DNA from: an uncultured Enterobacterales bacterium
GTDB taxonomy: Bacteria; Myxococcota_A; UBA796; CAJQPC01
Direction of reading: 5' to 3'
NCBI GenBank assembly: GCA_964610645.1
Contig: CAZSZE010000012.1
Location: forward strand, 5,095 to 69,094
Length of the DNA stretch: 64,000 nucleotides
Positions 18,807 through 33,211 of the stretch are shown piece by piece. Under the pieces are notes generated by a model. The model worked only from the letters and a program-made list of their open reading frames with translations. It had not been told where the DNA came from and searched no databases. The stretch's first letter is position 1, and each line of letters opens with the position of its first letter. The position numbers were made by a program, and so were the translations under genes.

Positions 18807-19008
18807 GGAACCGGCTGCCCAGGTGGCCGTGAAGTGAGGCGTGCGAAATCACACAAGTTCCTGTGATATGCGGGGCCTTGGCGTTGTTTGGCGGTGGTAT
18901 GATCCCTACTACCGCATAGGGAAGACAGGGAGGTCCGGAAACCCCTCCCCTCATGGGCCAGGGGACCGTCGGGCCTGGGGACGAACGCAGGAATCTGGGA
19001 GGCGATTG

Positions 19009-20529
19009 ATGGGAACCGAGTTCGGGGACCTGAGCACGGGCACACCCCACTACTCGGATAACTGGGCCGAAATGAAGGCCTACGTGAGTTTCACCGAGGA
19101 GGACTCACAGAGGCTCGCGGAGGTCCTCCCACTGCTGCGCCCTCACTTCAGGCAGCTGGTGGGGCACTTCTACGAGGTGATCGCAGAGTTTCCAGGGGCA
19201 AGGAGCGTCTTGAAGGACGATTCGCAGGTGGAGCGGCTTCAAAAGACGCTTCTGAATTGGTTGGTCGAGCTCTTTGAGGGACCCCATGACCTGTCCTATT
19301 TCGAGAGCAGGCGGCGAATCGGAGAGGTGCATGTAAGGGTCGGGTTGGAAGAGAGGTACATGTTTACGGCGATGAGCGTCATTCGCAGTGACCTTCTCGA
19401 TGTGGTCGCGGAGGTTTGTTCATCGGAAAAGACGGGCGAGATCAGCCGGTCCATTCTTCGAATCACGGATCTGGATCTTGCGGCCATGACAACTTCCTAC
19501 CGGGAGACACGAGAGCTGGCCCGTCTACAGGCATTGCACTCGGAGGTGGTCCAGAATCTTCCCGCGGGTGTGATTTGCATGGATCGAGCTGGGATCGTCA
19601 CCGCGGTGACAGAGATGACCAGGTTGATCTTGGGAGTGGACGTTGAGGTCGGTGACCAGGCTTTGGAAGTGCTTCCGACAGGGCTGTTCGGTGGAACATC
19701 GCTGGCACAGCTTCTCGAAGAGGTAATCCCTTTGGGGGTCCCCAAGCACATTGGTGGCGTGACCCTGGGCACAGGACAGGAAAGACGGACACTGCGCCTG
19801 AACGTTGTGCCCATGTTCCACGGCCTGTCGGACCTCATGATCAAGGTAGAAGACATCACGGAGGAGACCCGCGCCGAGCTGGAGGCCCGTCAGTCCAAAT
19901 CCCTCGCCCAGATTGGTGCGCTCACGGCCAATCTCGCCCATGAGATTCGAAATCCTCTCGCCGGTATCTCTTCCACGGTGCAGGTGGTGATGGGGGGGTT
20001 GGCGGAGAGTGATCGGCGGCGAAGAGCGCTGGCGCTTGTCACAGAACAGGTCGCCCGGTTGGATCACCTCGTGACCGATCTGCTCCTCTTTGGTCGCGCA
20101 ACGACGCCGCGTTGTGAGCGCACCGACTTGGGTGCTCTTGTTCTTGAGGTCATCAACGACAGGGGTTTCAATTCCGATTTCTTGGAGCGGGGCACAGCTT
20201 TGGCTTGGGCGGATCCGGACTGCGTGTGCCAGGTGCTCGTGAATCTCCTGCAGAACGCACTGGCAGCAGCAGGTCCGGGAGGCAGGGTCCTGGTCCGGGT
20301 AGGCCCGGGCCCGCAATTGGAGGTGCTGGACGATGGGCCCGGCGTGGAGGCGTCCGTACGGGAGACTCTCTTCGGTGCTTTTGTCACCACCAAGGCCAGG
20401 GGTACGGGCCTGGGTCTTGCAATCAGTCGCCAGATTTCGGAAGCGATGTCGGGAACCCTTGTCCTGGTGGAGGCGCCTGAGGATTCCCTTGGGGGGGCCT
20501 GTTTTCGCCTCAGCTTTCCTTCTGCTTGA
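19009..20529 (+). CDS. Globin-coupled sensor histidine kinase (sensor globin - PAS-like - HisKA - HATPase)
   Basis: The ATG at 19009 follows a GGGAGG Shine-Dalgarno sequence. The N-terminal sensor-globin/protoglobin signature has FTEEDSQRL, GHFYEVI (distal Tyr context) and RRIGEVHVRVGL (proximal His context). The H-box is LAHEIRNPLAGI. The ATPase domain has G-boxes (DDGPGV, GTGLGLAI). Confidence 0.8.
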   Translation: MGTEFGDLSTGTPHYSDNWAEMKAYVSFTEEDSQRLAEVLPLLRPHFRQLVGHFYEVIAEFPGARSVLKDDSQVERLQKTLLNWLVELFEGPHDLSYFESRRRIGEVHVRVGLEERYMFTAMSVIRSDLLDVVAEVCSSEKTGEISRSILRITDLDLAAMTTSYRETRELARLQALHSEVVQNLPAGVICMDRAGIVTAVTEMTRLILGVDVEVGDQALEVLPTGLFGGTSLAQLLEEVIPLGVPKHIGGVTLGTGQERRTLRLNVVPMFHGLSDLMIKVEDITEETRAELEARQSKSLAQIGALTANLAHEIRNPLAGISSTVQVVMGGLAESDRRRRALALVTEQVARLDHLVTDLLLFGRATTPRCERTDLGALVLEVINDRGFNSDFLERGTALAWADPDCVCQVLVNLLQNALAAAGPGGRVLVRVGPGPQLEVLDDGPGVEASVRETLFGAFVTTKARGTGLGLAISRQISEAMSGTLVLVEAPEDSLGGACFRLSFPSA

Positions 20530-21901
20530 TCTGGATTCCGTGCTTCTCGAGGCGGTAGCGTAGGGCGTAGCGGCTGATGTCAAGCAGCTTGGCGGCTTGC
20601 ACTTGGTTGCCCTGGGTGCGGGCCAGGGCTTGTTCCAGAAGTTGGCGCTCAACCTCCTCCAGGCTCGCCCCCGCCTCCCCCAGGACCAGCAGATTTTCGG
20701 GAACCGCTTCCCCCGGCTTGGGGTTGTGCGCCCTGGCCTCCTTGGGAAGGTGTGCGACCTCAATTGTCTCGTCTGCCTCAAGGATAATGGCACGCTCGAT
20801 CACGTTTCGAAGCTCCCGCACGTTTCCGGGCCATGGGTAGCTACACATCAGGTCCATTGCTTCCACACTGACACCGGTGATTTCCCGGCGATATTCCCTG
20901 TTGAATTGCCGCACGAAGTGATCCACGAGAAGTGGGATGTCGGTTCTACGCTCTCGAAGAGGAGGCACGACCAACTCCACGACGTTCAGCCGGTAGAAGA
21001 GGTCCTGGCGAAATGTCTTCTTCTGTACCTCTTCTGCCAGGTTTCGGTTTGTGGCCGCGATCACGCATGCGTCCATCTTGATGTCGTGGACGCTTCCCAC
21101 TCGTCTAAACCGCCGATTTTCCATGATTCGAAGGAGCTTGGCCTGCACCCCGATGCCCAACTCCCCGATCTCATCGAGAAAGAGCGTTCCGCCCTTGGCG
21201 ATCTCGAAGAGACCGGGCTTGGCAGTCCTTGCATCCGTGAAGGCACCTCGCTCGTGACCAAACAGCTCCGATTCGATCAGGGTCTCGGGCAGGGCAGCAC
21301 AGTCTACCTCCACATAGAGCCCATCCGATCGGGTGCCCGAGTCATGAATGGCCTTGGCGAGAAGGTCCTTTCCGGTTCCCGTTTCTCCTTGAATCAGGAT
21401 GGCTGGGGGATCCACGTCCTTCAATCGCTCGACGAGGGAGAGGACCCTCCGAATGCCGGCGGATTCTCCGATAATGCGTCCATAGTGGCGCTCGGCGCTC
21501 TTCTTGAGGTATCGAACTTCTAGTTGCAGGCGATGGCTCTTCAGCGCCTTCTCCACGGCGAACTCCACTTCCCGAAGATCGAAGGGCTTGCTCAGGTAGG
21601 CGTGGGCGCCCAGGCGGGTGGCCTCGATGGCTGACTCAATGGCCTCGAAGGCCGTGAGGACAATGACCGGCAGGGTGCTCTCTGTCTCTCGCAGGTGGCG
21701 CAGCACATCCAGTCCGCCCATCTGTGGCATTCGCAAGTCGGTGATCAAGAGGTCTGGTGAGACCGACGTGATCTGTTCAAGGCACTCCTTTCCGTTCTCC
21801 GCTTCGAAGATGCGATAGCCCAGGCCCTCCATGTGCTCCCGAAGCGCCCACCGGATGAGCGGTTCATCGTCACAGATGAGAATGTTGACGGGAACTTCCA
21901 T
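20510..21901 (-). CDS. Sigma-54-dependent response regulator (NtrC family enhancer-binding protein)
   Basis: Probable start is MEVPVNILICDDEP (21901). It has a receiver domain, an AAA+ core with Walker A GETGTGKD and the sigma-54 contact loop GAFTDA (a GAFTGA variant), and a C-terminal Fis-type HTH (AAKLLDISRYALRYRL). The 3' end overlaps the kinase gene by 20 nt (convergent). Confidence 0.9.
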   Translation of the reverse strand: MEVPVNILICDDEPLIRWALREHMEGLGYRIFEAENGKECLEQITSVSPDLLITDLRMPQMGGLDVLRHLRETESTLPVIVLTAFEAIESAIEATRLGAHAYLSKPFDLREVEFAVEKALKSHRLQLEVRYLKKSAERHYGRIIGESAGIRRVLSLVERLKDVDPPAILIQGETGTGKDLLAKAIHDSGTRSDGLYVEVDCAALPETLIESELFGHERGAFTDARTAKPGLFEIAKGGTLFLDEIGELGIGVQAKLLRIMENRRFRRVGSVHDIKMDACVIAATNRNLAEEVQKKTFRQDLFYRLNVVELVVPPLRERRTDIPLLVDHFVRQFNREYRREITGVSVEAMDLMCSYPWPGNVRELRNVIERAIILEADETIEVAHLPKEARAHNPKPGEAVPENLLVLGEAGASLEEVERQLLEQALARTQGNQVQAAKLLDISRYALRYRLEKHGIQIKQKES

Positions 21902-22033
21902 GGGCTGGCATCCTCTCCATTCGCTCTGGAAAAGCCATTTTTCCCAGTCAATCGCTTGCAAGCGCCATGCCGGCTGAATGAAGGCGCCGAGGGGAAGCGT
22001 ACGGCGATCGGGAATGTTCGCCTATTCTGTTGT

Positions 22034-22068: not shown

Positions 22069-22141
22069 TGTTTGGGGGGGGCGAAAGTGCAGGGCAGCGG
22101 CGGATCTTCGGCTGGGCGGGTGGTTGCTCGGGGCCTTGGGT

Positions 22142-22157
22142 TGGCACGCAATGTGCA
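22142..22157 (+). promoter_or_regulatory. Sigma-54 (-24/-12) promoter candidate
   Basis: TGGCACGCAATGTGCA matches the TGGCACG-N4-TTGCW consensus with one mismatch and correct GG/GC spacing. It lies ~100 nt upstream of the boxB-like ATG (22255) and divergent from the sigma-54 activator gene. Confidence 0.55.
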
Positions 22158-22254
22158 CACTTTGACCAAGGCGTTGCTGGGTGTGTCAGAGGTGTTCCCG
22201 TGTGGTTCCCTTGAAGGACACGTGCGGGCCGCAGACCTGGGAGAAGAAGTGGCA

Positions 22255-23664
22255 ATGGACTATGGGGCAACTGTCCCGAACAATGTGGGGCTCGCGAGCG
22301 ACCGGAAGCTACTGCGGGCGCTGGCCGCTTGGCAGCCCAAGTTCCGGGACTGGTGGGCAGATGTTGGCCCCCAGGGGTTCGACCAGGAGGAGGTGTACCT
22401 GCGCACGGCCGTTTCGACGGAGCCGGGTGGGTGGTCGCGCTTTGGGTTTGTGCAGATACCGGAGTATCGCTGGGGCATCTTCCTCGCGGACCCGATCGTG
22501 GATCGCAAGGTCCCCTGTGGGGATGATGCCGGGGAGAGGGCCTGGCAGGAGGTGCCGGGAGATCGGCGGAGCCTGTTGCAGAGCTTGATCGTGACGCAGG
22601 CGGACACGGAGCCGGCGTCGGTGGAGCAACAGCGGGCGCTTGGAAGTACCGCCCCAAGTCTGTACGACGCCCGAAACCTGCTGCAGGTAAATGTGGAAGA
22701 AGGCCGACACCTGTGGGCGATGGTGTACCTGCTCCATCGCTACTTTGGTAGAGATGGCCGGGACCAGGCGGATGACTTGTTGGTGCGGCGAGCAGGGGAT
22801 GCGGACTGTCCCCGAATCCTCGAGGCATTCAACCAACCGTGCGAGGACTGGCTGAGTTTCTTCTGTTTCACCTGTTTCACGGATCGGGATGGCAAGTACC
22901 AGCTGGGAGCCCTGGCGGAGTCCGGGTTTGATCCCCTTTCCCGGACCTGCCGCTTCATGCTCACCGAGGAGGCTCATCACCTGTTTGTGGGAGAACGGGG
23001 CTTGGAGAGAATCCTGCGCAGATCCGTGCAGTTGACTCGAGAGGATCCCAACGGGGACGCCAGGGGACAAGGTGGGATTGACCTCCCCACGCTTCAGAAG
23101 TACTGCAACTTCTGGTTTGCCTATTGTTTGGATCTCTTTGGTTCTGAGGAGAGCTCAAACGCGGCGCAGGCCTTCTCCATGGGGCTCAAGGGGCGGTGGA
23201 AGGAGAACCATCTTGAGGGAGATCATGTCTGTACCCACGGGGAGGTCTCCTTGCCGATGGTTCAGGACGGGGTGCTGGTCCACAAGGATGTGCCTCTTCG
23301 CCGCGCCATGAACGAGCTGCTTCGGGTGGAGTACATCAAGGACTGCCAGCGCGTGGTGGAACGTTGGAACCGGGCTCTTCAAGGAGAGGGAAGCGACTTT
23401 CGGATCAGCCTCCCCAATCACCGGTTCTTTCGACGAAAAGGACTGTACTCCGGGCACAAGTTTGACCCGGAGGGGAGGCTTGTTTCAGAGGCGGAGTGGT
23501 TGAAGCAGCAAGACGATTGGCTGCCCACTGCGTCGGATCGACGCTATGTCCAATCCTTGATGCAACCCTGCCTGGAGCCGGGAGAGATGGCCCATTGGAT
23601 CTGCGCGCCCACCCGTGGAATCAATGGGCGGCCGGTGCATTTCGAGTATCTGCGGGCGTGTTGA
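22255..23664 (+). CDS. boxB: Benzoyl-CoA 2,3-epoxidase (oxygenase) component B-like di-iron protein
   Basis: The ATG at 22255 starts MDYGATVPNNVGL. It shows extended similarity to BoxB as I recall it (WQP.F..WW, YLRTAVS, YRWGIFLA, IVTQADTEPASVEQQR, APSLYD.RNL.QVNVEEGRHLWAMVYLL, FMLTEEAHH, INGRPV.FEY). Di-iron E..H motifs are present. Confidence 0.85.
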   Translation: MDYGATVPNNVGLASDRKLLRALAAWQPKFRDWWADVGPQGFDQEEVYLRTAVSTEPGGWSRFGFVQIPEYRWGIFLADPIVDRKVPCGDDAGERAWQEVPGDRRSLLQSLIVTQADTEPASVEQQRALGSTAPSLYDARNLLQVNVEEGRHLWAMVYLLHRYFGRDGRDQADDLLVRRAGDADCPRILEAFNQPCEDWLSFFCFTCFTDRDGKYQLGALAESGFDPLSRTCRFMLTEEAHHLFVGERGLERILRRSVQLTREDPNGDARGQGGIDLPTLQKYCNFWFAYCLDLFGSEESSNAAQAFSMGLKGRWKENHLEGDHVCTHGEVSLPMVQDGVLVHKDVPLRRAMNELLRVEYIKDCQRVVERWNRALQGEGSDFRISLPNHRFFRRKGLYSGHKFDPEGRLVSEAEWLKQQDDWLPTASDRRYVQSLMQPCLEPGEMAHWICAPTRGINGRPVHFEYLRAC

Positions 23665-23775: not shown

Positions 23776-25215
23776 TCAAAGAACCTCGGCCACGCAGGGG
23801 TGCAAGGTGGACAGGCGTTCGCGCAGGGTTGCCACAATGTCCTGGGTGGCAGAGTCGTCGCCGGACATCGCAGCCGCCACCTGGTGTATTGCCCGGGCCT
23901 CAGGATGGTCTGGCTGGGCCGCCAACACGCGGCTGGCCAATGTTTGCGACTGCTGGAGTCGCCAGGCCGGGTCGTGCCCCCGTACGCAGGCCCACTGGAG
24001 CCAGGACCTTGCCGCCCTGAGCTCTCCTTCTTCAAGGTCGCTATCTGGAGTGGTGGCAGGCAGCGCCGGTGGGGCCGGAACCTCCAGAATATTGGCCTCT
24101 TCAAGAGCCTGGAGCAAGCCACTGACAAGTGCGGAAACGGCAATGGGTCTTGGGTGAACCCAGTCGTAGAACCCGTCATTCCCCGGAGACGGCAGGGCCC
24201 GATTCACGGCGGCTTCCGTGTCTGCCAGTACCACACCCTTGCCGTCGGCCAGGCGACGAATGACCTCGTTGAGGTCTCTGGGGGCTCTCAGCGGCAGGCC
24301 GTCGTGATTCACTGCGGAGGCCAGGGCATTTGCAGGATCCTGGCCTGCTTCTCGAACCTTCAGTCCGAGCTGCCAAGACACGTCAGCGGACTCCGGGAAC
24401 TGGGTGGAGAGACCCTGGAGTTGACCAAGAGTCTGGTCGGACAAGCCGGCGAGGGATTCGGGGCCCTCGGTGCTCCAGTTGGGGTCCAGGCCGGACATGT
24501 TGGAGGCTTGCGTGGCGAGAATCACCGGAACGTCCGCCTTCTCGCTCATTTGGAGGATTCGATTGAGATTGCGCTCGAAGACTCCCACAATGGCTTGTCG
24601 ATGCTCTGGGGACCCATAGGAGGGTGGCCCAATCCAGCCCGGAGAGGTCGTGGGGCGTGGAAGTGCCTGGAGGAGCTGTCGCACGAGGTTGAAACGCCAC
24701 AGACTGGCCGGAAACCGCATGGGAGCTGCCAGGAACTCGTTGTGCCCGTCGTAGACAATCACGGCGCTTGGATGCCAGGAGAGTGCACGATCAAGGAGTC
24801 TCCGCGTGTCATCGGACGCCCCACCGTTGACGCCGAGATTGATGATCTCGAATTTGCCGGGAGCCACGTCGTCTAGGGAGGCCTGGAGGCTCCCAGCGAT
24901 ACCGTGCATCGGTCGGCCCATTGGCTCGGTTCCCCGCGGCCGGGTTGGATATCCAAAGGAGGTCGAGCCCCCGACCAGCAGCAGGCGGGTCACCCCCTCG
25001 GCAGGCTGTACCGAGAACTGGATGGGACGGAACTGTTGGCAGCCGAAGGTGACCTCGGTCTCGGTCTCATCCAGCCAATACCAGGATGGATCGACTGGCC
25101 AGGCGAGGTGGGTGGCGTGGTATTCCAGTGCCGCCAGGGCAACGAAGACGGCGAGCACACAGCTGGCAAAAAGCCGAAAGAGTGGCCAGAGTCGACGCAT
25201 CCCGTTCCCTGTCAC
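23776..25215 (-). CDS. Membrane-anchored SGNH/GDSL-like hydrolase-fold protein with helical C-terminal domain
   Basis: An N-terminal TM helix is present (LWPLFRLFASCVLAVFVALAAL). SGNH-like blocks: LLLVGGSTSFG (block I Ser), NLGVNGGAS, VIVYDGHNEF, YDWVHP (block V D..H). The GTG at 25215 overlaps the upstream stop (GTGA); an alternative ATG lies at 25200. Confidence 0.55.
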   Translation of the reverse strand: MTGNGMRRLWPLFRLFASCVLAVFVALAALEYHATHLAWPVDPSWYWLDETETEVTFGCQQFRPIQFSVQPAEGVTRLLLVGGSTSFGYPTRPRGTEPMGRPMHGIAGSLQASLDDVAPGKFEIINLGVNGGASDDTRRLLDRALSWHPSAVIVYDGHNEFLAAPMRFPASLWRFNLVRQLLQALPRPTTSPGWIGPPSYGSPEHRQAIVGVFERNLNRILQMSEKADVPVILATQASNMSGLDPNWSTEGPESLAGLSDQTLGQLQGLSTQFPESADVSWQLGLKVREAGQDPANALASAVNHDGLPLRAPRDLNEVIRRLADGKGVVLADTEAAVNRALPSPGNDGFYDWVHPRPIAVSALVSGLLQALEEANILEVPAPPALPATTPDSDLEEGELRAARSWLQWACVRGHDPAWRLQQSQTLASRVLAAQPDHPEARAIHQVAAAMSGDDSATQDIVATLRERLSTLHPCVAEVL

Positions 25216-25418
25216 AGCAGGGGGTACACAAAGGGGCTGATGGCTGGAAAGAGGGACAGAACCACGAGGGCAACCGCAAACACCAGGAGAACGACGACGA
25301 CGGGAATAGCGAGCTTGAGCCTATCACCAGACATGGCAGAGAGAACAGCGAAGACCGACTTCAGCGCGGATCGGGAGGCGGCGGAGCGCGTACGCTTCTT
25401 CTGGGGCGGTTGTGTCAT
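25212..25418 (-). CDS. Small membrane protein, DUF5989 (SxtK-like)-like
   Basis: 68 aa with a basic N-terminus, one TM helix and a C-terminal ...ISPFVYPLL. This resembles the ...APFIYTLF ending of the DUF5989 family as I recall it. Both junctions are ATGA/GTGA overlaps. Confidence 0.5.
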   Translation of the reverse strand: MTQPPQKKRTRSAASRSALKSVFAVLSAMSGDRLKLAIPVVVVLLVFAVALVVLSLFPAISPFVYPLL

Positions 25419-27238
25419 GCGGTCACCTTCTTGATGAAGACGTGGTCCACAACCAGGCAGGGGATCTCGCTTCTCGCAAAGAGAAGCAGCGCGTCGGCCG
25501 GGGATGCGGTCAGCGGGTAGCCTCGCTCCTGGAGCTCAAAAAGAGCGAGCGCGGGCAGGCCATGGAGGGCGCCCCATGCTTTGAGCAGCTTGTACAGGCT
25601 CGGGTGGCGCTCCGGGCTGCAGAGCAAGGGCACGCACGTGCCGTCAGGGGCCACGCAGGAGTCAACGAGTGGCCGGGCATCCGGGCAAACCTCGGCCCGG
25701 ACCTGGTTCCAGGGTGCGTCCCACGGAGGATCCACCAAGACCTGTTCCGCATCGTCCGTGGCGATGGCGAGGGAAGGAATGGAGAACTGTGGTTGTCCGG
25801 CGATTCTGTGTGCAGTCTGCGCCAGGGTTGTCGGGTGCTTTGGAGCGGCCAGAATAGCTCGATCTCCCAAGTTCCGCGTGGCACACGAAAACCTGCCCTG
25901 GTGCCATCCGATCGCGTCACCGGACTCCAGAGCGGCAACACAAGCCGCCACCAGAGAGTCCTCATGGGTGTGTACGGTGCGCTCGAGTTCGAGCCCTGAG
26001 GCCGACACGTTGCTCCCGGGCATGCGAAACCGACGCCATGCTCCTGGTCGTAGGTGGGCGGCTGTCTCCGCCGCCTGGTTTGCGTCGTAGGCTCGACCGA
26101 GAAACGGCCATTCGCCGCGTGTTGTTTCCGTCTTTCCGAACCGGGCCCCGTACAAGGCTGCGCCCAGGGCGTTGCCCGCGTCGCCGGGGTCGGGAGGCAC
26201 AAAGATCGCTTCAAACAGTCCAGATCCACGAACCCGACGAACGATCTCCGGGTCGGCTGCGATCTCTCCTCCCAGGCACAGATGGGGGAGTCCGGTATCG
26301 CCCCGGAGCTTCTCGCAAAGCGCCAGCACCCGCTCTGAGATGACCTCCTGAAGCGAGGCGGCGATGTTCGCCAGCTCCTGGTCACGCGGGCTGGAAAGCT
26401 GTCCTCTTTGTACATCGTCCGGGGCGGACCATGGCTTGCGCACGTCCCTCGGGGGACCAAAGGTCGACTCGAACTGCTCGGTCCACGGCTGCCGGAAAGG
26501 AGGAGACTCAAGGCGTTCAAACCGAAACCATCCCGGGCTGACCCGGTAGCTTCCATCCTCGGCGCCCACCAGGATTCGACGAAACTCCTCGAGTCTTGTT
26601 GGTTGGCCGTAGAGAGCGAGCTCACCCAGGTGCCACGCTTCGTTCCCAGGCGGAAAGCCAAGGTGCGTGGCGACGGCCCGGCGGAACAGCCCCAGGGAGT
26701 GTGGGTAGGAGAGGAAGCCATGAGCCAGGAGTTCGATGTCCGGAACTCGGGCTCCCTGCCCCATCGTCGTACAGGGCCACTCCCCCTTGCCATCCAACAC
26801 CAGGATGGCCGCCTCCGGAAACGGAGACGTGAGAAATGCGTTGGCCATGTGCCCCAGGTGGTGTGGGATGAACTCCACCAGGTCGGGGTGCACGTCGAGT
26901 TGGGCGCTGATCTCGTTTCGCACCCAGAGCATGGACTCCATCCACCGCTTCATCGTTCGGACAAATGGGGAGAGCCCTTTGGGGAAGGGAGCGCCGAGCG
27001 TGCAGGAGAAGACGCGACTGAAGCGGTTGTGCGGTTCCTCGTGGTACACCACCAGGTCGAGATCCTCGGCGGTTATCCGGCCCTCGTTCAGGCAGAACTC
27101 CATGGCGTAGGTTGGCACGTTGGGCTCTCCGGACTGCCGCGTGAACCGCTGCTCGGAGGCGGCCGCCACGAGTTGCCCCCCGACCACCAGCGCAGCGGCC
27201 GAGTCGCTGTGCATGGCGGACACTCCGAGCACGTTCAT
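25415..27238 (-). CDS. Carbamoyltransferase (NodU/CmcH family)
   Basis: 607 aa. The N-terminal MNVLGVSAMHSDSAAALVVGGQLVAAASEQRFTR is the typical family start. The two-domain length also fits. ATGA overlaps occur at both ends. Confidence 0.85.
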   Translation of the reverse strand: MNVLGVSAMHSDSAAALVVGGQLVAAASEQRFTRQSGEPNVPTYAMEFCLNEGRITAEDLDLVVYHEEPHNRFSRVFSCTLGAPFPKGLSPFVRTMKRWMESMLWVRNEISAQLDVHPDLVEFIPHHLGHMANAFLTSPFPEAAILVLDGKGEWPCTTMGQGARVPDIELLAHGFLSYPHSLGLFRRAVATHLGFPPGNEAWHLGELALYGQPTRLEEFRRILVGAEDGSYRVSPGWFRFERLESPPFRQPWTEQFESTFGPPRDVRKPWSAPDDVQRGQLSSPRDQELANIAASLQEVISERVLALCEKLRGDTGLPHLCLGGEIAADPEIVRRVRGSGLFEAIFVPPDPGDAGNALGAALYGARFGKTETTRGEWPFLGRAYDANQAAETAAHLRPGAWRRFRMPGSNVSASGLELERTVHTHEDSLVAACVAALESGDAIGWHQGRFSCATRNLGDRAILAAPKHPTTLAQTAHRIAGQPQFSIPSLAIATDDAEQVLVDPPWDAPWNQVRAEVCPDARPLVDSCVAPDGTCVPLLCSPERHPSLYKLLKAWGALHGLPALALFELQERGYPLTASPADALLLFARSEIPCLVVDHVFIKKVTA

Positions 27239-27936
27239 GGAAGTGCCGGAGACTCGAATTCCACGAAACCGGGTGCTTCGTCGAGGCGCTGCCTACAGGC
27301 CCAGGCGCCCCCGAGCAGGCCGAGGACATAGAGAACGGTGAGAAGGACTCTCATGGGAATCTCGCCCAGGCGCCTGGAGAATCGAAGCCAACTCTCCCAT
27401 GCACGCCGCAGCCGAGCACGTCGGATCCACCGATCTGCCTCCTTGGGTGAGCCCACGATGGCGAGGAGGAGCTTGTGGGTGAGGCCTACGTGCCCGAGTT
27501 CGTCCTTTTTTGCTTCAAGGAAGACGCTCCTTGCCGGACAGTCTCCTATTCCTGCTGCGTAGGAGTTGAACTGGTCAAAGACGTCCTTCTCCCCGACGTG
27601 GGCGTGGGCAAGAAACGCTGGTGCGGCATCCTCTCCCTTCAACGGGTCCAGGATGGGATCTCTGTGGAGGAGCGGTTTGGGTGGGTGGGAGGCCTCGTAC
27701 TGGCTGGCAACCCGATCAAACTCGCTGGCGTGGTGGAGCTCTTCGAGGGTGTGCTGGAGAACGAGGGCTCGAGTAGGGGGGTCGTCGATCTGCTCCAGGG
27801 CGTGCAGCAGCTGCCAGGCGCTGTCCGCTTCCATGACTGAAAAGTACTTGAGCCGCGATGCCATTCTCCCGGAGAACGGTCTCCAGGTCAGTGGAACCAG
27901 AACCCTTGTCAGCAGGTTTCGCGGCCAATTCGTCAT
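27235..27936 (-). CDS. Ferritin-like (putative di-iron carboxylate) protein with C-terminal TM anchor
   Basis: Two E...ExxH-type pairs are present (MEADSAW / LEELHH and GEKDVF / KDELGH) in predicted helices. The C-terminus has a hydrophobic helix (VLLTVLYVLGLLGGAWA). The ATG at 27936 overlaps the cytochrome c stop (ATGA). Confidence 0.5.
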   Translation of the reverse strand: MTNWPRNLLTRVLVPLTWRPFSGRMASRLKYFSVMEADSAWQLLHALEQIDDPPTRALVLQHTLEELHHASEFDRVASQYEASHPPKPLLHRDPILDPLKGEDAAPAFLAHAHVGEKDVFDQFNSYAAGIGDCPARSVFLEAKKDELGHVGLTHKLLLAIVGSPKEADRWIRRARLRRAWESWLRFSRRLGEIPMRVLLTVLYVLGLLGGAWACRQRLDEAPGFVEFESPALP

Positions 27937-28958
27937 GGCACCTCGGCAGCGTTCTCCACGGGAAGGGGAGCCGTGATCTGGCCTGTGTCCGCTTCTACCA
28001 GTGCCTTGCGCTGGGCAGCCTCGGGCGTTCCCTTCAGCGCGGTGAGAGAGCCGACATAGTGGGCGATCGCCCAGATTTCCTTGGACTCCAGCGTCTCAGA
28101 CCAGGCCGGCATGGCGGTTCCGGGAATGCCAATTCCAATCACCTGGGCCAGGGAGGCGTTGTCTCTCGCTCGCCTGAGCGGGCGATAGGTGAAGTCCGGT
28201 GGCACGATCATGAGTGGCTGCTCGCAGCGGCCATACCGGCAGACCTGGTCCTCACCGGTACAGTCCCGGTTGGTTTCACAGGCGGGATCGCCAGGGATCG
28301 GGCTGCTGTAGGACTTGCTTTCCTTGGCCTTTGAGCGCCACCTGTTGGGCCGAAAGTCGGTCTTGAATGACAAGCCAAGCTCCTGCCGGTCGGCGTTGGT
28401 GGCCTCGCGCGTCTGGAAGGCGGGGTGGCATGTGGAGCACTCAGCCACGCTGTGGTAGAGCGTTTCGCCCCTCTCAATGGCTGCCTTGTCGTCCGTCCAG
28501 GGGTCTTCTCCCGGACTGTAGGGGGCACTCACCTCTGAGTCCGGGTCGCGCCATCCGTCTCCTTCTGGGGAGAACGTCTTGATGTACTGAATCAGCGGCT
28601 CGAGCATCTGGTCCGGAAGCTCCCATTCCAGCATCGCGGTTCCATGCAAGCCTCCGCGTATCAGGAGCCCAAGGGACTCATCCGTTGGCAAGTACTCAGT
28701 GGAGGTCCCAGTGAACTTGTAGGTCGCGGTTCGCAGGTCGCGGGGGGGCGGCGTGAGGTCCGCGGAGGAGAGGCCTCGACCGTCCCCGTCCGTGCCGTGG
28801 CACGAGATGCAGTAGTAGGAGTACGCCGACTCTCCCGCATTGAGGGTGTCCGCGGAGACGGAGATACCTCCCAGGACCTGGGGCTCGGTGAAGGCGGGCT
28901 CGCAGCCCAACAATGGGGCAAGGACGAGCAGGGAGAGGGCGTGGAATTTGGGGGTCAA
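27933..28958 (-). CDS. Dihaem c-type cytochrome lipoprotein
   Basis: The TTG at 28958 follows a GGAGAAG Shine-Dalgarno sequence and gives (M)TPKFHALSLLVLAPLLGC (lipobox). Haem motifs are CISCHG and CSTCHP, with a Met-ligand context GTAMPAW. The track ORF to 29234 is over-extended. Confidence 0.75.
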   Translation of the reverse strand: MTPKFHALSLLVLAPLLGCEPAFTEPQVLGGISVSADTLNAGESAYSYYCISCHGTDGDGRGLSSADLTPPPRDLRTATYKFTGTSTEYLPTDESLGLLIRGGLHGTAMLEWELPDQMLEPLIQYIKTFSPEGDGWRDPDSEVSAPYSPGEDPWTDDKAAIERGETLYHSVAECSTCHPAFQTREATNADRQELGLSFKTDFRPNRWRSKAKESKSYSSPIPGDPACETNRDCTGEDQVCRYGRCEQPLMIVPPDFTYRPLRRARDNASLAQVIGIGIPGTAMPAWSETLESKEIWAIAHYVGSLTALKGTPEAAQRKALVEADTGQITAPLPVENAAEVP

Positions 28959-29200
28959 AGGACTTCTCCACGAATTGAACTCGATAGGGGCATGGGGGAA
29001 GTGTTCGCTTGATGGGCATGATGAAGCCACCTCAAGAACACTCCCAGGATCAGGATTGGAAGGCCCAGCATCAGGGCGGTTGCGGTGAGGTACGCCATCG
29101 CTTCGTCTCCCCCGAAGATCCCGGCACAATTGGGGCACGCGTCTGCTGTGCCACTTGCCAGGCCCGAGAGGAGCAGCATGAAGGCGATTCGGCTTACCAC
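28955..29200 (-). CDS. Small membrane protein with CPNC motif (unknown; oxidase-operon encoded)
   Basis: 81 aa with a signal-like N-terminus, then ADACPNCAG, then one TM helix (TATALMLGLPILILGVFL) and an HHAH patch. Its stop overlaps the downstream TTG (TTGA) and its start overlaps the upstream gene by 7 nt. Confidence 0.4.
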   Translation of the reverse strand: MVSRIAFMLLLSGLASGTADACPNCAGIFGGDEAMAYLTATALMLGLPILILGVFLRWLHHAHQANTSPMPLSSSIRGEVL

Positions 29201-29784
29201 AGGTACACCAGGCCGTAGAGGGGGGGCCAGACAAGCACCACGAAGGTCCAGTACATTCGCCCGGCTCTAAGGCGATCCATTGATTGGGTGGATCCGGGGT
29301 CCCGGAGGGTCAGCTGGTGGATGCGTGCGAACACAACCAGGGCCACGATCACGTGCAACCCGTGACAGCCCACGAGGGAATAGAACAGGGCGCCGTAGAG
29401 GCTGGAAGATGAGGTGAGTCCGTGCTGGATCAGGCGCCCCCACTCAATGCCCTGAAACACCACAAAGACGGTGCCAAGGGCCAGCGCTGCTCCCCGCAGG
29501 GACCGGGCGATGTTGTGGTTGCCCCGGGCGGATTCGGAGACGCTGCGCCAGAGAGCGCCTCCACTGGCGATAAGAATCGCCGTGTTGATGGCGGTGGCAA
29601 AGACCGGTAGGCGCGGTTGGTCGAGGGGTGGCCAGAGACCTGCTTGGGACCGCAGCACCACGTAGGCGCTGGCCAGGCCACAGAAGAGCATGGCCTCAGA
29701 GATCAGAAACAGTGCGCACCCGAGGACGATGTTGGGAATCGCCGGAGACGGTCGGGTGGGGCGCACCTGTGCTGCTGCGGTCAT
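29194..29784 (-). CDS. Haem-copper oxidase subunit III family protein (second copy)
   Basis: Start is MTAAAQV (29784), with an ATGA overlap with the subunit IV gene. It is polytopic. FQGIEW and GCHGLHVIVAL motifs parallel subunit III. The track ORF to 29973 is over-extended. Confidence 0.7.
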   Translation of the reverse strand: MTAAAQVRPTRPSPAIPNIVLGCALFLISEAMLFCGLASAYVVLRSQAGLWPPLDQPRLPVFATAINTAILIASGGALWRSVSESARGNHNIARSLRGAALALGTVFVVFQGIEWGRLIQHGLTSSSSLYGALFYSLVGCHGLHVIVALVVFARIHQLTLRDPGSTQSMDRLRAGRMYWTFVVLVWPPLYGLVYLW

Positions 29785-30074
29785 TGGACGGGCTCTGCCC
29801 CAAAGACCCAGGCGATGTCCGGAATGAGGCCCACATAGAGCACCATCAGGGCCAACAGGCAGCCGACAATCAGCACCTTGATGGCTCGTTGCTCCAGGGT
29901 CACGTGCATGAAGCGGGAAGCCACAAGCCACGCCTTGAAGAGGGCGATCAAGAAGACAAAGGCAATGGCCCACTGGCTCCCGGAGACAGCTGTGGCCACC
30001 AGCGAGATGCCGAAGGCAACCGACAGCACTATCCAGACCCGGACGTAGTTCGTGGGGGGGTGAGAGTCACTCAT
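29781..30074 (-). CDS. Cytochrome c oxidase subunit IV (prokaryotic type)
   Basis: 97 aa with three hydrophobic helices. The signature IALFKAWLVASRFMHV matches the prokaryotic COX4 family motif (KA.LV...FMH). Confidence 0.7.
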   Translation of the reverse strand: MSDSHPPTNYVRVWIVLSVAFGISLVATAVSGSQWAIAFVFLIALFKAWLVASRFMHVTLEQRAIKVLIVGCLLALMVLYVGLIPDIAWVFGAEPVQ

Positions 30075-30081
30075 GGAAACC

Positions 30082-30651
30082 TCAGCTGGCCAGGTAGAGA
30101 AGGGGGAACAAGAAGATCCAGATCACATCCACGAGATGCCAATAGAGGCCCACGTTCTCCACCCATTCGGGGCTCTTCTGGCTTGGGGTCTTCCACGCGA
30201 CAACGGCAATCGCTGTCATCCCGCCGATGACATGCAGCGCATGGAGGCCGGTCAGGATGTAGTAGAAGGACCAGAACAAGCCAGTCACGGGTGTGTACCC
30301 GGCGTGAATCTCGTGGGAGTACTCAAAGGCCTTGATGCAGAGGAACACGAGCCCCCCGCCCACCGTGAAGAAGAGAAACCGGGAGCTCTTGGCGAAGTCC
30401 CCCTTCGCTGCGGCCTCGTGGGCGAGAATTGCTGTGAGACTGCTGGTGAGAAGCACCATCGTGTTGATGGCGCCGGCGGCCGTCATGGTGTGTGCAGCCT
30501 CTGCGCTCCACTCGGGATGGCGCATCCTCAGGAGCACATAGGTGGTCACGAGGCCACCGAAGATCAGGATCTCGGATCCCAGGAACCACCACATTCCGAG
30601 GCGGCCTGTGGGCGTCTCCGTGGCGGTGCGGCGAATGGAAAGAGTGGACAT
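30082..30651 (-). CDS. ctaE: Cytochrome c oxidase subunit III
   Basis: 189 aa. Motifs: GMWWFLGSEILIFGG, FYYILTGLHALHVIGG, YWHLVDVIWIFLFPLLY. Confidence 0.85.
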   Translation of the reverse strand: MSTLSIRRTATETPTGRLGMWWFLGSEILIFGGLVTTYVLLRMRHPEWSAEAAHTMTAAGAINTMVLLTSSLTAILAHEAAAKGDFAKSSRFLFFTVGGGLVFLCIKAFEYSHEIHAGYTPVTGLFWSFYYILTGLHALHVIGGMTAIAVVAWKTPSQKSPEWVENVGLYWHLVDVIWIFLFPLLYLAS

Positions 30652-30657
30652 GGCTGC

Positions 30658-32373
30658 TCATTTCCCCGCTTGTTGATGGGTTTTCAGTGCATCGAGCGGA
30701 GCGTCGGCTGTCTCGTCGCTCTTCCAGACCGGAAGAAAGTCGGGCCCATCCCCGGGAGGGCTGTAGAAGTAGGGCCCCCGGTAGCTGACGGGGCGTTCGG
30801 TGAAGTTGCCGTGGGGGGGCGGGGAAGCGGTGTTCCACTCCATGGTCGTGGCGTTCCAGGGGTTCTTTCCGGCCACCTCTCCCTTCTTCAACGAAAGGAA
30901 GATGTTGATGACAAAAGGTACCTGGAAGATGAGCATCGCTGCGGTTGCCACGGTGGCAATCGCCTGGAGAGACTCAGCGTGCCCCTGGAGGAAGTCAAAG
31001 GAAGTAGGAACCGCGATGCGGCGGTGGTGCCCCAGGAGCCCCAGTTGGAACAGGGGAATGAAGATTGCGTTGAAGGAGAGAAAGGTGCCCAGAAAGTGAA
31101 TTGTGCCCAAGCGCTCGTCCAGCTTTCTCCCGAACATTTTCGGGTACCAGTGGTAGATGCCAGCGAAAGTGCCGAACAACGTGATGGGGACCAGGGTGTA
31201 GTGAAAGTGCGCCACCACGAAGTAGCTGTCGTGGATGTAGATGTCGGCGGCAGCTGATCCGTTCATGATGCCGGTCACTCCGCCGATAAAGAACAGTCCG
31301 ATGAACCCCAGGGCGAACTGCATGGCGGTGGTGAACCGAATGGACCCCTTCCACAGGGTCGCTACGAAGGCAAACATCGCGACCGCAAAGGGCACAGAGA
31401 TGAGGATTGTGGTCAGACTGAAGGGGGCGGCCAGGCGCGGGTCAATGCCACTGATGAACTGGTGATGGGCCCAGACGACGAAGCTCAAGATTCCAGCAAC
31501 GATCGTGGACCAGACCACATGACGCTGAGCGAACAGGGCCTTCCGCGAGTTCGCGCAGAGGACCTCTCCCATGATCCCAAGAGCAGGCAGGAGGAGCACG
31601 TAGACTTCCGGGTGTCCGAAGAACCAAAACAGGTGCTGAAAGAGCAGCGGGTCTCCCCCCAGGGAATTCGCATAGAAACCGGTTCCGATGGTGCGATCCA
31701 GCAGGAGCATCACCGCCCCCCCGATCAGGGGCCCGACGGAGATCATGAAGACGATGCTGGCGATGACAATCTGCCAGACCACGAACGGCCAGTCCCAGAT
31801 GCGCATTCCCTCGGCACGGAGATTGATCGAGGTGGTGATGAAGTTGATCCCCCCCATGAGAAAGGCCACCAACTCAAGGGCGACAGCCAGAATCCAGAGG
31901 TTCACGCCCCAATCCACGCCGCTGAAGATCGCGTCTGCTGCCAGTGGTGGGTAGGAAGTCCATCCCCCAGCGGCAGCACCTCCCGGAACGAAGAACGACG
32001 CGATCAAGACCACCGTGCTCAAGAAGAAGATCCAAAAGGACATCATGTTGAGCGTGGGAAACGCCATGTCGTCGGTGCCGATCATCAAGGGAATCAACAG
32101 GTTTCCGAAGCCTGCCACCAGCAGGGGCATGGCGACCCAAAAGATCATGATCGAACCATGCATCGTGACGTACGCGTTGTACTCGTGGGGAGAGATGGCC
32201 CCCACCAGGGGCAAGGGGTCGCCCGGCCACGCCAGCTGCAGTCGCATCCCGTAGGCCAGGAGGCCGCCAAGCACGGCCATGACCAAGCCTGTGAACATGT
32301 ACTGCTTGGCGATGACCTTGTGGTCCGTCGAAAAGACGTGGGTTCTAAGGAAACCTTGTGGAGCGTGGTTCAT
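30658..32373 (-). CDS. ctaD: Cytochrome c oxidase subunit I (A1-type haem-copper oxidase)
   Basis: 571 aa. Motifs: FWFFGHPEVYVLLLP (GHPEVY, the A1-type Glu/Tyr motif), WAHHQF, and HDSYFVVAHFHY (haem ligands). Confidence 0.95.
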   Translation of the reverse strand: MNHAPQGFLRTHVFSTDHKVIAKQYMFTGLVMAVLGGLLAYGMRLQLAWPGDPLPLVGAISPHEYNAYVTMHGSIMIFWVAMPLLVAGFGNLLIPLMIGTDDMAFPTLNMMSFWIFFLSTVVLIASFFVPGGAAAGGWTSYPPLAADAIFSGVDWGVNLWILAVALELVAFLMGGINFITTSINLRAEGMRIWDWPFVVWQIVIASIVFMISVGPLIGGAVMLLLDRTIGTGFYANSLGGDPLLFQHLFWFFGHPEVYVLLLPALGIMGEVLCANSRKALFAQRHVVWSTIVAGILSFVVWAHHQFISGIDPRLAAPFSLTTILISVPFAVAMFAFVATLWKGSIRFTTAMQFALGFIGLFFIGGVTGIMNGSAAADIYIHDSYFVVAHFHYTLVPITLFGTFAGIYHWYPKMFGRKLDERLGTIHFLGTFLSFNAIFIPLFQLGLLGHHRRIAVPTSFDFLQGHAESLQAIATVATAAMLIFQVPFVINIFLSLKKGEVAGKNPWNATTMEWNTASPPPHGNFTERPVSYRGPYFYSPPGDGPDFLPVWKSDETADAPLDALKTHQQAGK

Positions 32374-33071
32374 TAGCTCTCGTCCTTTGCTGCCAGCAAT
32401 GACTGCTGGCTCGACGTGTTGTTGACCCAGTCTTCAAAGGACTCGGCTGACTGAACGATGAGCTCACCACGCATCACCGTGTGGGAGGCACCGCAGATCT
32501 CTGCACAAGCGATCTCATAGGTGCCCTCCACCGTCGCCTCAAACCAACCCGGAATGGACCGGCCTGGGACCGCGTCCTGCTTGAGTCTCAGCTCCCGCAC
32601 AAAGAACGAGTGAAGCACGTCTTTTGACTCGAGTTGAAAGCGGACAATGCCGTCCTTGGGGACGTGCAACTCAGAGACCGTGCCGAAGTCGTCCGCGGTG
32701 TCCAGGACCCCGTCCTCCCCGGCGTAGGTAAAGTCCCAGGCAAACTGGCGAGCCGTCACCCGGACAAGCAGGTCGTGCGCCGGAACATCAATCTTCACTT
32801 CGTCCCAGACCGCGTTGCTGCGAATGTCGATCACCATGTCGCAGATGAAGACCAGTCCCACCGGGACATAGATCCAAGCAAGGGACTTTCGGCTGACCCC
32901 TGGCATCCAGGCTGCGCGGACTTTGTCTTTGCGGCGAAAGGCCACGATCGCGTAGAGAAGCAAGCCTTCGCACACCACCAGCCAGGCGAAAGCCAGCCAC
33001 CAGATGAGAAGAATGATCCCGTCGATGGCAATTCCGGATGAGGAAATTGCGGCAGGTAGGTCACCAGGCAT
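32373..33071 (-). CDS. ctaC: Cytochrome c oxidase subunit II (no fused cytochrome c domain)
   Basis: The ATG at 33071 starts MPGDLPAAI. It has two TM helices. The CuA motif is HSFFV...CAEICGASHTVM. The stop overlaps the ctaD ATG by 1 nt (TAATG). The track ORF to 33869 is over-extended. Confidence 0.9.
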   Translation of the reverse strand: MPGDLPAAISSSGIAIDGIILLIWWLAFAWLVVCEGLLLYAIVAFRRKDKVRAAWMPGVSRKSLAWIYVPVGLVFICDMVIDIRSNAVWDEVKIDVPAHDLLVRVTARQFAWDFTYAGEDGVLDTADDFGTVSELHVPKDGIVRFQLESKDVLHSFFVRELRLKQDAVPGRSIPGWFEATVEGTYEIACAEICGASHTVMRGELIVQSAESFEDWVNNTSSQQSLLAAKDES

Positions 33072-33211
33072 GAGCGAACTCTCCCGTTTCGCGAATTCGA
33101 TTGGGCTAAACGCAATGGTCGTGCCAACTCGGTTGGACGGTAGAAGGCGGGTTTCGGAGCGCTTCCTTCCTGTGGGTGTCCGACAGGGGAGGGCGTACGT
33201 GCCCATCGTTG

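Follow-up and report, generated by a model that had tools for sequence, protein, structure and literature searches.

The 64,000-nucleotide (nt) stretch of DNA studied here, hereafter the window, comes from an uncultured bacterium of the Myxococcota_A lineage (assembly GCA_964610645.1, contig CAZSZE010000012.1) and carries, on its minus strand, a unit of 11 closely packed genes that extends from ctaC, starting at 33071, to a gene for an SGNH-type enzyme ending at 23776. A sequence-only reading had described this unit as a cytochrome c oxidase operon that appears to be translationally fused to a carbamoyltransferase module, and listing and translation of the open reading frames (ORFs) located all of its ORFs and junctions as that reading gave them. 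The unit is composed of two modules, each conserved on its own: an oxidase module (33071-27933) and a cassette (27936-23776) encoding a ferritin-like di-iron protein, a carbamoyltransferase homologue, a small membrane protein and the SGNH enzyme. Coordinates below are those of the window and lie on its minus strand unless stated otherwise; loci traced elsewhere carry L numbers and individual proteins P numbers.

Every junction in the unit is an overlap or a gap of at most 7 nt, with the possible exception of the last. The ctaC and ctaD genes meet in a TAATG (32373), a 6-nt gap follows ctaD and a 7-nt gap the first COX3-like gene, after which the subunit IV gene and the second COX3-like gene overlap in an ATGA (29781-29784), the latter overlaps an 81-aa ORF by 7 nt (29194-29200), and this ORF overlaps the cytochrome c gene in a TTGA (28955-28958). 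The oxidase module passes into the cassette at 27933-27936, where the cytochrome c and di-iron genes share an ATGA. Two further ATGA overlaps join the di-iron gene to the carbamoyltransferase gene (27235-27238) and the latter to the gene for the 68-aa small membrane protein (25415-25418), which in turn overlaps the SGNH gene in a GTGA (25212-25215). This last overlap depends on the start codon chosen, and since the sister species of the window's organism has only the start equivalent to Met6, which leaves an 11-nt gap and no GTGA, the junction is probably an 11-nt gap. This packing is tighter than that of the surrounding DNA: all 10 junctions of the unit are of 7 nt or less, compared with 3 of the 12 other same-strand junctions of the window as counted from a rough gene call that took each gene at its most upstream start (Fisher p = 4.6e-4). 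The sister species keeps the same geometry, except that its ctaC and ctaD overlap by 4 nt instead of 1. The ATGA at 27933-27936 is identical in the two species, despite the fact that about 50% of the codons for conserved residues differ between them, and a GAGG Shine-Dalgarno-like sequence precedes the di-iron ATG. The term "translationally fused" is better replaced by "stop/start overlap"; the reading frames stay separate.

Prediction of internal promoters, which the sequence-only reading had proposed as a check, gave results consistent with the continuity of the unit. Sequence scans detected no sigma-70-like or terminator-like site near the cytochrome c/di-iron junction, no sigma-54-like site inside the unit that is conserved in position between the window and the sister species, and no terminator or promoter after the last gene, while an Rfam scan of the whole window returned no RNA family. 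The RNA around the junction is unstructured, less structured even than shuffled controls (z = +1.3), and synonymous sites show no increase in conservation over the final 25 codons of the cytochrome c gene (0.58 vs 0.53); there is no room for signals at this junction. Judged from its sequence, the unit has the anatomy of a single operon; the evidence for one continuous transcript from 33126 to 23776 is indirect and consists of the junction geometry, the lack of terminator and promoter matches and the conservation in the sister species.

The oxidase module is a seven-gene cluster for an A-family (aa3-type) haem-copper cytochrome c oxidase. Its first gene, ctaC (32373-33071), encodes a 232-aa subunit II with two transmembrane helices and the CuA motif CAEICGASHTVM, without a fused haem c domain. 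The protein matches Pfam COX2 (E = 3e-14, 53 bits, cut-off 22) and, slightly under the cut-off, TIGR02866 CoxB (2e-41). Its CuA site, with a CxExCGxxHxxM at residue 189 and the upstream His within DVLHSFF, identifies a cytochrome c oxidase and not a quinol oxidase. Subunit I is encoded by ctaD (30658-32373; 571 aa), which matches Pfam COX1 strongly (2e-132, 442 bits, cut-off 34.8) and TIGR02891 with 577 bits, under the strict equivalog cut-off of 671, and is 91% identical to the sister species copy. Two COX3-like subunits follow, of 189 aa (30082-30651; Pfam COX3 1e-18, 68 bits) and 196 aa (29194-29784; 4e-20, 73 bits), which are about 30% identical to each other and have between them the gene for a prokaryotic subunit IV (29781-30074; 97 aa; Pfam COX4_pro 2e-7, 31.7 bits, cut-off 28.9; TIGR02229 37.0 bits vs a cut-off of 37.25). 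The second COX3-like gene is the counterpart of the copy that related clusters usually have between ctaD and the cytochrome c gene. Most of these clusters have a single COX3-like gene in that interval; their other COX3-like gene lies elsewhere or on the opposite strand, and only in L069 is a detectable COX4 gene beside it.

The last two genes of the module encode a small membrane protein and a cytochrome. The 81-aa product of 28955-29200 has a signal-like N terminus, a CPNC motif and one transmembrane helix, and matched no family when the window proteins were scanned against Pfam and NCBIfam. Its ORF is missed by public gene callers, and omitting it would leave a 235-nt gap. Since it is conserved as a protein in three lineages (57% identity in the sister species, 41% in L021 and 33% in L102), it is probably real. 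The cytochrome c gene (27933-28958) encodes a 341-aa lipoprotein with a lipobox (LLGC, C19) and two haem-binding motifs (CISCH at 50, CSTCH at 174), matching Pfam Cytochrome_CBB3 and Cytochrom_C; it belongs to a family with 297 homologues at E <= 1e-10 and presumably gives electrons to CuA. None of the oxidase assembly genes ctaA, ctaB, ctaG and sco was found in the unit by the Pfam and NCBIfam scans. As a whole, the module resembles the ctaC-ctaD-COX3-cytochrome c clusters of Myxococcota and other soil or sediment bacteria, which have the same gene order and end with the same family of lipoprotein dihaem cytochrome c (35-66% identity between the window protein and the copies in 80 metagenomic loci). 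However, the window adds a COX3/COX4 pair after ctaD, where most relatives have nothing, as well as the 81-aa ORF and four unrelated genes 3' of the cytochrome c gene.

The cassette opens with a tail-anchored ferritin-like di-iron protein (27235-27936; 233 aa) whose transmembrane helix spans residues ~193-214. Its putative ligands, E36, E66xxH69, E116 and E146xxH149, are invariant in 13 homologues, and its AlphaFold2 model (pLDDT, the predicted local distance difference test, of 86) displays helices at 22-47, 53-80, 98-130 and 134-161 followed by a long C-terminal helix. Foldseek placed bacterioferritin and ferritin at the top of the matches to this model, with PaaC and MiaE also found (probability ~1, E ~0.07). 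The invariant ligands and the ferritin-like predicted fold bear out the label "di-iron protein" given from the letters alone. The window protein itself has no Pfam match above noise, no NCBIfam match and weak PDB profile matches; two members of its family, P0240 and P0300, reach 20-22 bits with Rubrerythrin, slightly under the cut-off of 22.8. A public gene caller starts the sister species gene at Met25, which would open a 68-nt gap; we rejected this start because it would remove 24 N-terminal residues that are modelled as a helix and conserved in the family (W18 in at least 90%). The family comprises about 450 clusters at 50% identity in a profile search of 1.8 billion representative proteins and has no curated model. 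It shares with bacterioferritin, rubrerythrin, MiaE and PaaA/PaaC a four-helix bundle with two E...ExxH motifs about 30 residues apart, but the window protein has no significant membership in these sequence families. In further contrast to known ferritin-like di-iron proteins, it carries an additional helix at the N terminus and a transmembrane tail anchor at the C terminus, and its family is obligately paired with a carbamoyltransferase. This pairing extends to a natural fusion, P0275 (847 aa), between a di-iron domain and a complete canonical carbamoyltransferase. Another natural fusion, P0264 (434 aa), joins a PEMT/ICMT-like membrane methyltransferase to a ferritin-like domain. None of the papers listed in a literature search for gene clusters combining a carbamoyltransferase with a ferritin-like or diiron gene mentions a carbamoyltransferase.

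The second cassette gene (25415-27238) encodes a 607-aa homologue of the TobZ/NodU-family (class III) carbamoyltransferases, in which the Kae1-like domain is intact and the YrdC/TsaC-like domain degenerate. The protein matches Carbam_trans_N (1e-40, 140.5 bits, cut-off 24) and Carbam_trans_C (4e-18, 65.9 bits, cut-off 27), and aligns end to end with NovN (E = 7e-43), TobZ (7e-36) and GdmN. The N-terminal catalytic His of class III enzymes is kept as H10, as are the iron ligands H127 and H130 (in HHLGH, 126-130), D149 and D353, which align with those of TobZ, NovN and GdmN. The KxR/SxN tetrad, which is essential for ATP binding in TsaC/Sua5 domains (PMC6004061), is lost: the KxR column reads AGQ (481-483) in a MAFFT alignment and NTSFN is replaced by LFELQ (566-570). 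In the pairwise alignment TobZ K443 pairs with an Ala, and TobZ S530 falls within the replaced NTSFN. The other adenylating-domain motifs (GPRALGNRS, FRPFAP and HVDGTxRxQ) are degenerate as well, and the NodU model gives 41.6 bits for the window protein vs 107.6 bits for a canonical cassette copy. Since it is this YrdC-like C-domain that makes carbamoyl-AMP in TobZ and GdmN (PMC6004061, PMC9633730), the window homologue is probably unable to make carbamoyl-AMP itself. The same losses are seen in the sister species and in P0136, whereas canonical enzymes and distant cassette copies keep all motifs; several related lineages have also lost the HHxxH iron ligands of the Kae1-like domain. Nevertheless, the degenerate C-domain is as conserved as the N-domain between the window and the sister species (72% and 73% identity), so it is under selection, and the clade's tetrad-less protein remains under purifying selection and linked to the di-iron gene. 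It may be a pseudo-enzyme or a repurposed enzyme. Overall, the protein shares the Kae1-like and YrdC/TsaC-like domains and the iron ligands of class III O-carbamoyltransferases (TobZ, NovN, GdmN, NodU, CmcH, SxtI) but differs from them in lacking the tetrad and in being always paired with a ferritin-like protein; on its motifs, it is a carbamoyltransferase homologue that nevertheless would not qualify as a complete class III enzyme. Neither a second, canonical carbamoyltransferase nor a GT2 synthase was found elsewhere in the window.

The third cassette protein (25212-25418; 68 aa, transmembrane helix 36-54) is a single-pass, DUF5989-like (SxtK-like) membrane protein. Its own match to DUF5989 (PF19451) is weak (15.9 bits, E = 0.014, cut-off 27). 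The positional counterparts in L020 and L017 score 2.6e-5 and 1.9e-3 (24.6 and 18.6 bits), with a weak match in L008, and have size, position and a single transmembrane helix in common with the window protein. In modules of the SxtI-SxtJ-SxtK type, the carbamoyltransferase is followed by small DUF5989/SxtK and SxtJ membrane proteins. The window shares with these modules a DUF5989-like single-pass protein encoded directly after the carbamoyltransferase with a stop/start overlap, but its match to DUF5989 falls short of the threshold, it has no identified SxtJ homologue and there is no saxitoxin-type context.

The last gene (23776-25215) encodes a membrane-anchored SGNH/GDSL enzyme with a C-terminal helical domain, of 479 aa or, if started at the ATG at 25200, 474 aa, with an N-terminal transmembrane helix at 12-30. 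The protein matches Pfam Lipase_GDSL_2 (38.0 bits vs a cut-off of 32.9) and presents GGS at 82 (block I), GVNGG at 128 (block III) and DWVHP at 351 (block V); GGS, NGG and DW(V/I)HP are conserved across seven homologues. It is reminiscent of AlgX/AlgJ, PatB and OafA/OafB (reviewed in PMC9487903) in that its SGNH domain is anchored in the membrane, keeps all of the Ser/Asn/Asp-His set and is encoded with cytoplasmic activation machinery and small membrane proteins and, in distant cassettes, next to a large GT2 synthase. The likeness is architectural only, since the cassette has no MBOAT or AT3 acyl-shuttle protein.

We traced the di-iron family by protein search (13 clusters), contig look-ups and a scan of one genome per GTDB species (10 loci), and determined the cassette and cox gene content of the loci by tblastn with all window proteins. 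In every locus examined the di-iron gene lies directly 5' of the carbamoyltransferase gene, usually with the 68-aa and SGNH genes next. The cassettes fall into two groups. Those of the window's group (the window, the sister species, P0136, L005/L014, L006, L008, L009, L012b, L013, L015 and L016), with di-iron proteins 48-100% identical to that of the window, have lost the KxR/SxN tetrad together with the neighbouring motifs of the YrdC/TsaC-like domain. A distant group (L010, L012a, L017a/b, L018, L019 and L020), with di-iron proteins 31-39% identical to the window's, keeps all carbamoyltransferase motifs. Three of the distant cassettes (L010:1250-9856, L018:32-8677 and L020:10001-18585) include a GT2 glycosyltransferase of about 1124 aa, in the order di-iron protein, canonical carbamoyltransferase, DUF5989, GT2, 143-aa protein, SGNH, TPR, and each looks like a complete operon for the synthesis and modification of a polysaccharide or oligosaccharide. 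In one locus (L012:6213-12519), two di-iron/carbamoyltransferase pairs of the same orientation are separated by about 1.4 kb; the carbamoyltransferase is canonical in one pair and degenerate in the other, which suggests a duplication as the origin of the degenerate form. Genes for large radical SAM proteins (455-693 aa) recur a few genes 3' of the cassette in L005/L014, L009 and L017; beside the window's unit there is no counterpart. Genes related to the envelope (GT87, sulfotransferases, LpxR, outer-membrane proteins and GT2) are often found near other cassettes. Together with the intact SGNH triad and the membrane anchors of three of the four cassette proteins, these neighbours suggest an envelope substrate.

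The sequence-only reading had also asked whether the neighbouring of cox and carbamoyltransferase genes is conserved in relatives; the answer is largely negative. Among the traced loci, those with cox genes beside the cassette all belong either to the window's own species (L001, L002) or to the sister species (L003/L004/L011), whose di-iron protein is 81% identical and whose whole neighbourhood is syntenic, a synteny that reflects shared ancestry and is not independent evidence. In 11 other lineages, the di-iron/carbamoyltransferase core has unrelated surroundings, from which cox genes are absent for 10 kb. The converse search, a metagenome scan with an alignment of the cytochrome c that gave 80 loci, revealed the order ctaC-ctaD-COX3-cytochrome c across loci L021-L100. 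Where upstream sequence sufficed, a cox gene lies directly 5' of the cytochrome c gene on the same strand in 33 of 40 loci, so cox clusters of this type normally end with the cytochrome c gene. Cassette genes were found in none of the 80 cytochrome c loci, including the 33 with at least 2 kb of downstream sequence. The adjacency is confined to one narrow clade. None of the papers listed in our literature search describes a cox-carbamoyltransferase operon.

An informative locus belongs to a third lineage and appears to be split over two contigs. In L102, a cytochrome c gene (66% identical to the window's) is followed by 393 nt; in L103, 179 nt precede a di-iron gene (protein 62% identical). The end of L102 matches the start of L103 over 133 nt at about 93% identity, which implies a spacer of about 439 nt between the two genes, exactly where the window and the sister species have an ATGA overlap. 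Because this third lineage appears to have the cassette 3' of the cytochrome c gene across a spacer, the adjacency of the modules is older than their fusion. The spacer contains a perfect sigma-54 motif, TGGCACGAACTTTGC. An independent promoter at the junction, which the sequence-only reading had named as evidence that would count against it, is thus present as a motif in a relative but absent from the window. A hairpin directly after the cytochrome c stop in L102 was considered as a terminator and rejected, as it is not canonical. The spacer (L102:1376-1768, L103:1-179) also holds a 29-aa ORF with a prepilin-type N terminus, MGRNERGFTLTELVV..., which is probably the remnant of a pilin gene because its frame is not kept between L102 and L103.

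Upstream of the unit, 41 nt from the ctaC ATG, lies a sigma-54 (-24/-12) promoter motif, TGGCACGACCATTGC (33112-33126). This is the sole perfect TGGCAC-N5-TTGC on either strand of the 64 kb, where about 0.25 would be expected by chance, and the chance of a perfect match in the right orientation within the ctaC intergenic region of some 200-400 nt is far lower. The motif sits in a 19-nt island, AGTTGGCACGACCATTGCG, that is identical in the sister species, where the intergenic region is otherwise about 70% identical. Free-standing cassettes in L009 and L015 have sigma-54-like motifs with intact GG and GC 67 nt (CGGCACGATTCCTGC) and 58 nt (CGGCACGCGGCTTGC) 5' of the di-iron gene; across the 15 upstream regions scanned, about one chance match of this type is expected.

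Two regulatory genes lie downstream of the unit in the window, both syntenic in the sister species. One (20510-21961), about 11 kb from the ctaC promoter, encodes an NtrC-type sigma-54-dependent response regulator (Pfam Response_reg, Sigma54_activat at 1.5e-63, and HTH_8). The other (18841-20529, plus strand) encodes a protoglobin-PAS-HisKA-HATPase sensor kinase (Pfam Protoglobin 4e-32, HisKA and HATPase_c), a candidate haem-based O2 sensor. A sigma-54-like motif just 5' of the NtrC-type gene in the window (21958-21972, CGGCATGGCGCTTGC) and in the sister species (L011:17243-17257, TGGCATGGCGTTTGC) suggests that the regulator may be autoregulated. A comparable pair in Myxococcus xanthus, NmpU (a protoglobin kinase) and NmpR (NtrC-like), controls sigma-54 promoters, among them that of a cbb3 oxidase operon (PMC11841059). 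The window recalls this NmpRSTU/NmpR regulon in combining a protoglobin kinase, an NtrC-like activator, itself possibly autoregulated via its own sigma-54-like site, and a sigma-54 promoter directly 5' of a haem-copper oxidase operon. However, its oxidase is aa3-type (A family), not cbb3, and one kinase and one regulator are visible in the window, compared with a four-protein relay. The oxygen- or respiration-linked expression proposed in the sequence-only reading is thus made plausible by the conserved sigma-54 motif, the protoglobin kinase and the NtrC-type activator; by analogy, the whole 11-gene unit is probably oxygen-regulated. Between these regulators and the unit, on the plus strand and convergent on it, lies a gene (22072-23664) matching the equivalog for BoxB, benzoyl-CoA 2,3-epoxidase subunit B (699 bits vs a cut-off of 499), another di-iron, O2-dependent enzyme, with the kinase and activator genes just beyond it. 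In the sister species an extra gene for a beta-eliminating lyase separates the BoxB gene from the unit, and the L001 copy of the BoxB gene carries a frameshift that divides it in two.

Taken together, these observations lead us to favor, at a probability of roughly 60%, a composite operon that arose by recent, lineage-specific fusion of two modules through deletion of a spacer, which placed the cassette under the sigma-54 promoter of the oxidase and hence under O2-linked control. In the ancestor of the clade, the cassette would already have been 3' of the cox cluster, across a spacer of about 439 nt with its own sigma-54 promoter. Deletion of this spacer in the lineage of the window and the sister species would then have made the cytochrome c stop overlap the di-iron start. 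The cassette would now most likely be transcribed only from the promoter 5' of ctaC, its genes being translated by re-initiation at the overlaps, and that promoter would probably be switched on by the NtrC-type activator under the protoglobin kinase, such that a change in oxygen status would lead to joint production of cassette and oxidase. As to what the cassette does, O2-dependent tailoring of a lipid or glycan of the envelope appears more likely than a role in oxidase assembly. On the cytoplasmic side of the membrane, the di-iron protein may oxidise or hydroxylate the substrate; the carbamoyltransferase homologue may act with it, in this clade probably without synthesis of carbamoyl-AMP of its own, and the SGNH enzyme may act on the outer side of the membrane.

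Several points weigh against this reading. Co-transcription and the lack of an internal promoter are what we infer from scans that span the sigma-70 and sigma-54 consensus, and the direction of the change, deletion of a spacer and not its insertion, is read from three lineages with no outgroup that has the adjacency. The third-lineage spacer was rebuilt from two short contigs of different samples via their 133-nt overlap. The NtrC-type regulator and the protoglobin kinase are candidates for control of the ctaC promoter because they are encoded nearby and resemble the M. xanthus pair. A search 5' of ctaC for an NmpR-type box (GCGCA-N5-TGCGC) gave nothing conserved between the window and the sister species, k-mers common to five sigma-54 upstream regions amount to one weak 7-mer, and rpoN is not in the window. 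The substrate and chemistry of the cassette, O2-dependent envelope tailoring, constitute a working model, in which the loss of the tetrad leaves even carbamoyl transfer uncertain for the window protein. Finally, the persistence of the adjacency across three lineages could reflect some selective link to the oxidase.

In one competing account, the cassette came to lie beside the cox genes by chance and the loss of the spacer was tolerated and not selected, leaving co-expression with no adaptive meaning. We regard such hitch-hiking as unlikely yet worth taking seriously, since the two modules are independent everywhere else. The lineage has also drawn into its cox cluster the COX3/COX4 pair, which most relatives have at another place or on the opposite strand, suggesting general compaction. 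There are no mobile-element scars, and a search for direct or inverted repeats flanking the cassette gave chance-level short matches only. What speaks for more than chance is that the adjacency has been kept in three lineages and the exact ATGA in two species despite heavy synonymous turnover. The third-lineage cassette, moreover, already had a sigma-54-type promoter like that of ctaC, which hints at shared regulation before fusion, and an enzyme of the di-iron type needs O2, which provides a rationale for oxygen-linked control. In another account, the cassette would, despite the overlap, be transcribed mainly from a promoter of its own, within the cytochrome c gene or further 5', making two transcription units of what looks like one. 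NtrC-like regulons of M. xanthus are known to include promoters that lie inside upstream genes (PMC11841059), our scans span two promoter classes only, and the sister species has a weak sigma-54-like site, with two mismatches, 96 nt 5' of the di-iron start. This site is not conserved in the window, however, where the coding strand of the cytochrome c gene has no sigma-70-like or sigma-54-like site; with no raised synonymous conservation in its last 25 codons and no terminator before the junction, independent transcription seems improbable to us.

The account that we consider the least credible is a functional partnership, in which the cassette would modify a lipid, a cofactor or a subunit for the assembly or activity of the aa3 oxidase. 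It is in line with the single operon architecture common to both modules, with the membrane anchors or plausible membrane association of all four cassette proteins, and with the conservation of the adjacency in three related lineages. Against it stand the absence of cox genes within 10 kb of the cassette core in 11 lineages, the absence of the cassette downstream of all 33 related cox clusters, the distant cassettes built around a large GT2 glycosyltransferase, and ctaA, ctaB, ctaG and sco, which are not part of the unit. The role in oxidase or membrane biogenesis offered as an alternative in the sequence-only reading finds no support in the same distribution, to which the apparent separation of the modules in the third lineage can be added.

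The unit reveals no new component of a respiratory oxidase and does not add to the biology of the respiratory chain. Its interest lies first in operon growth: it offers a clean, datable case by spacer deletion, which helps to understand how regulons are rewired, as three related lineages appear to display the states before (a separate sigma-54 motif in a spacer of about 439 nt) and after (the ATGA overlap). It also adds an aa3-type oxidase to the few haem-copper oxidase operons apparently under a globin-coupled kinase and a sigma-54 activator, and draws attention to an uncharacterised pairing of ferritin-like protein and carbamoyltransferase, in many members of which the annotation "carbamoyltransferase" probably misleads, as the adenylation motifs have been lost. 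In its widest form, which we advance as a long shot, the idea would be that this pair is the core of an undescribed, fairly widespread O2-dependent system for tailoring envelope lipids or glycans, present here with a non-adenylating partner, whether a pseudo-enzyme or an enzyme of new chemistry, and wired into a globin-sensed sigma-54 oxygen regulon. If true, this would mean that the cell remodels its envelope whenever its terminal oxidase is switched on.

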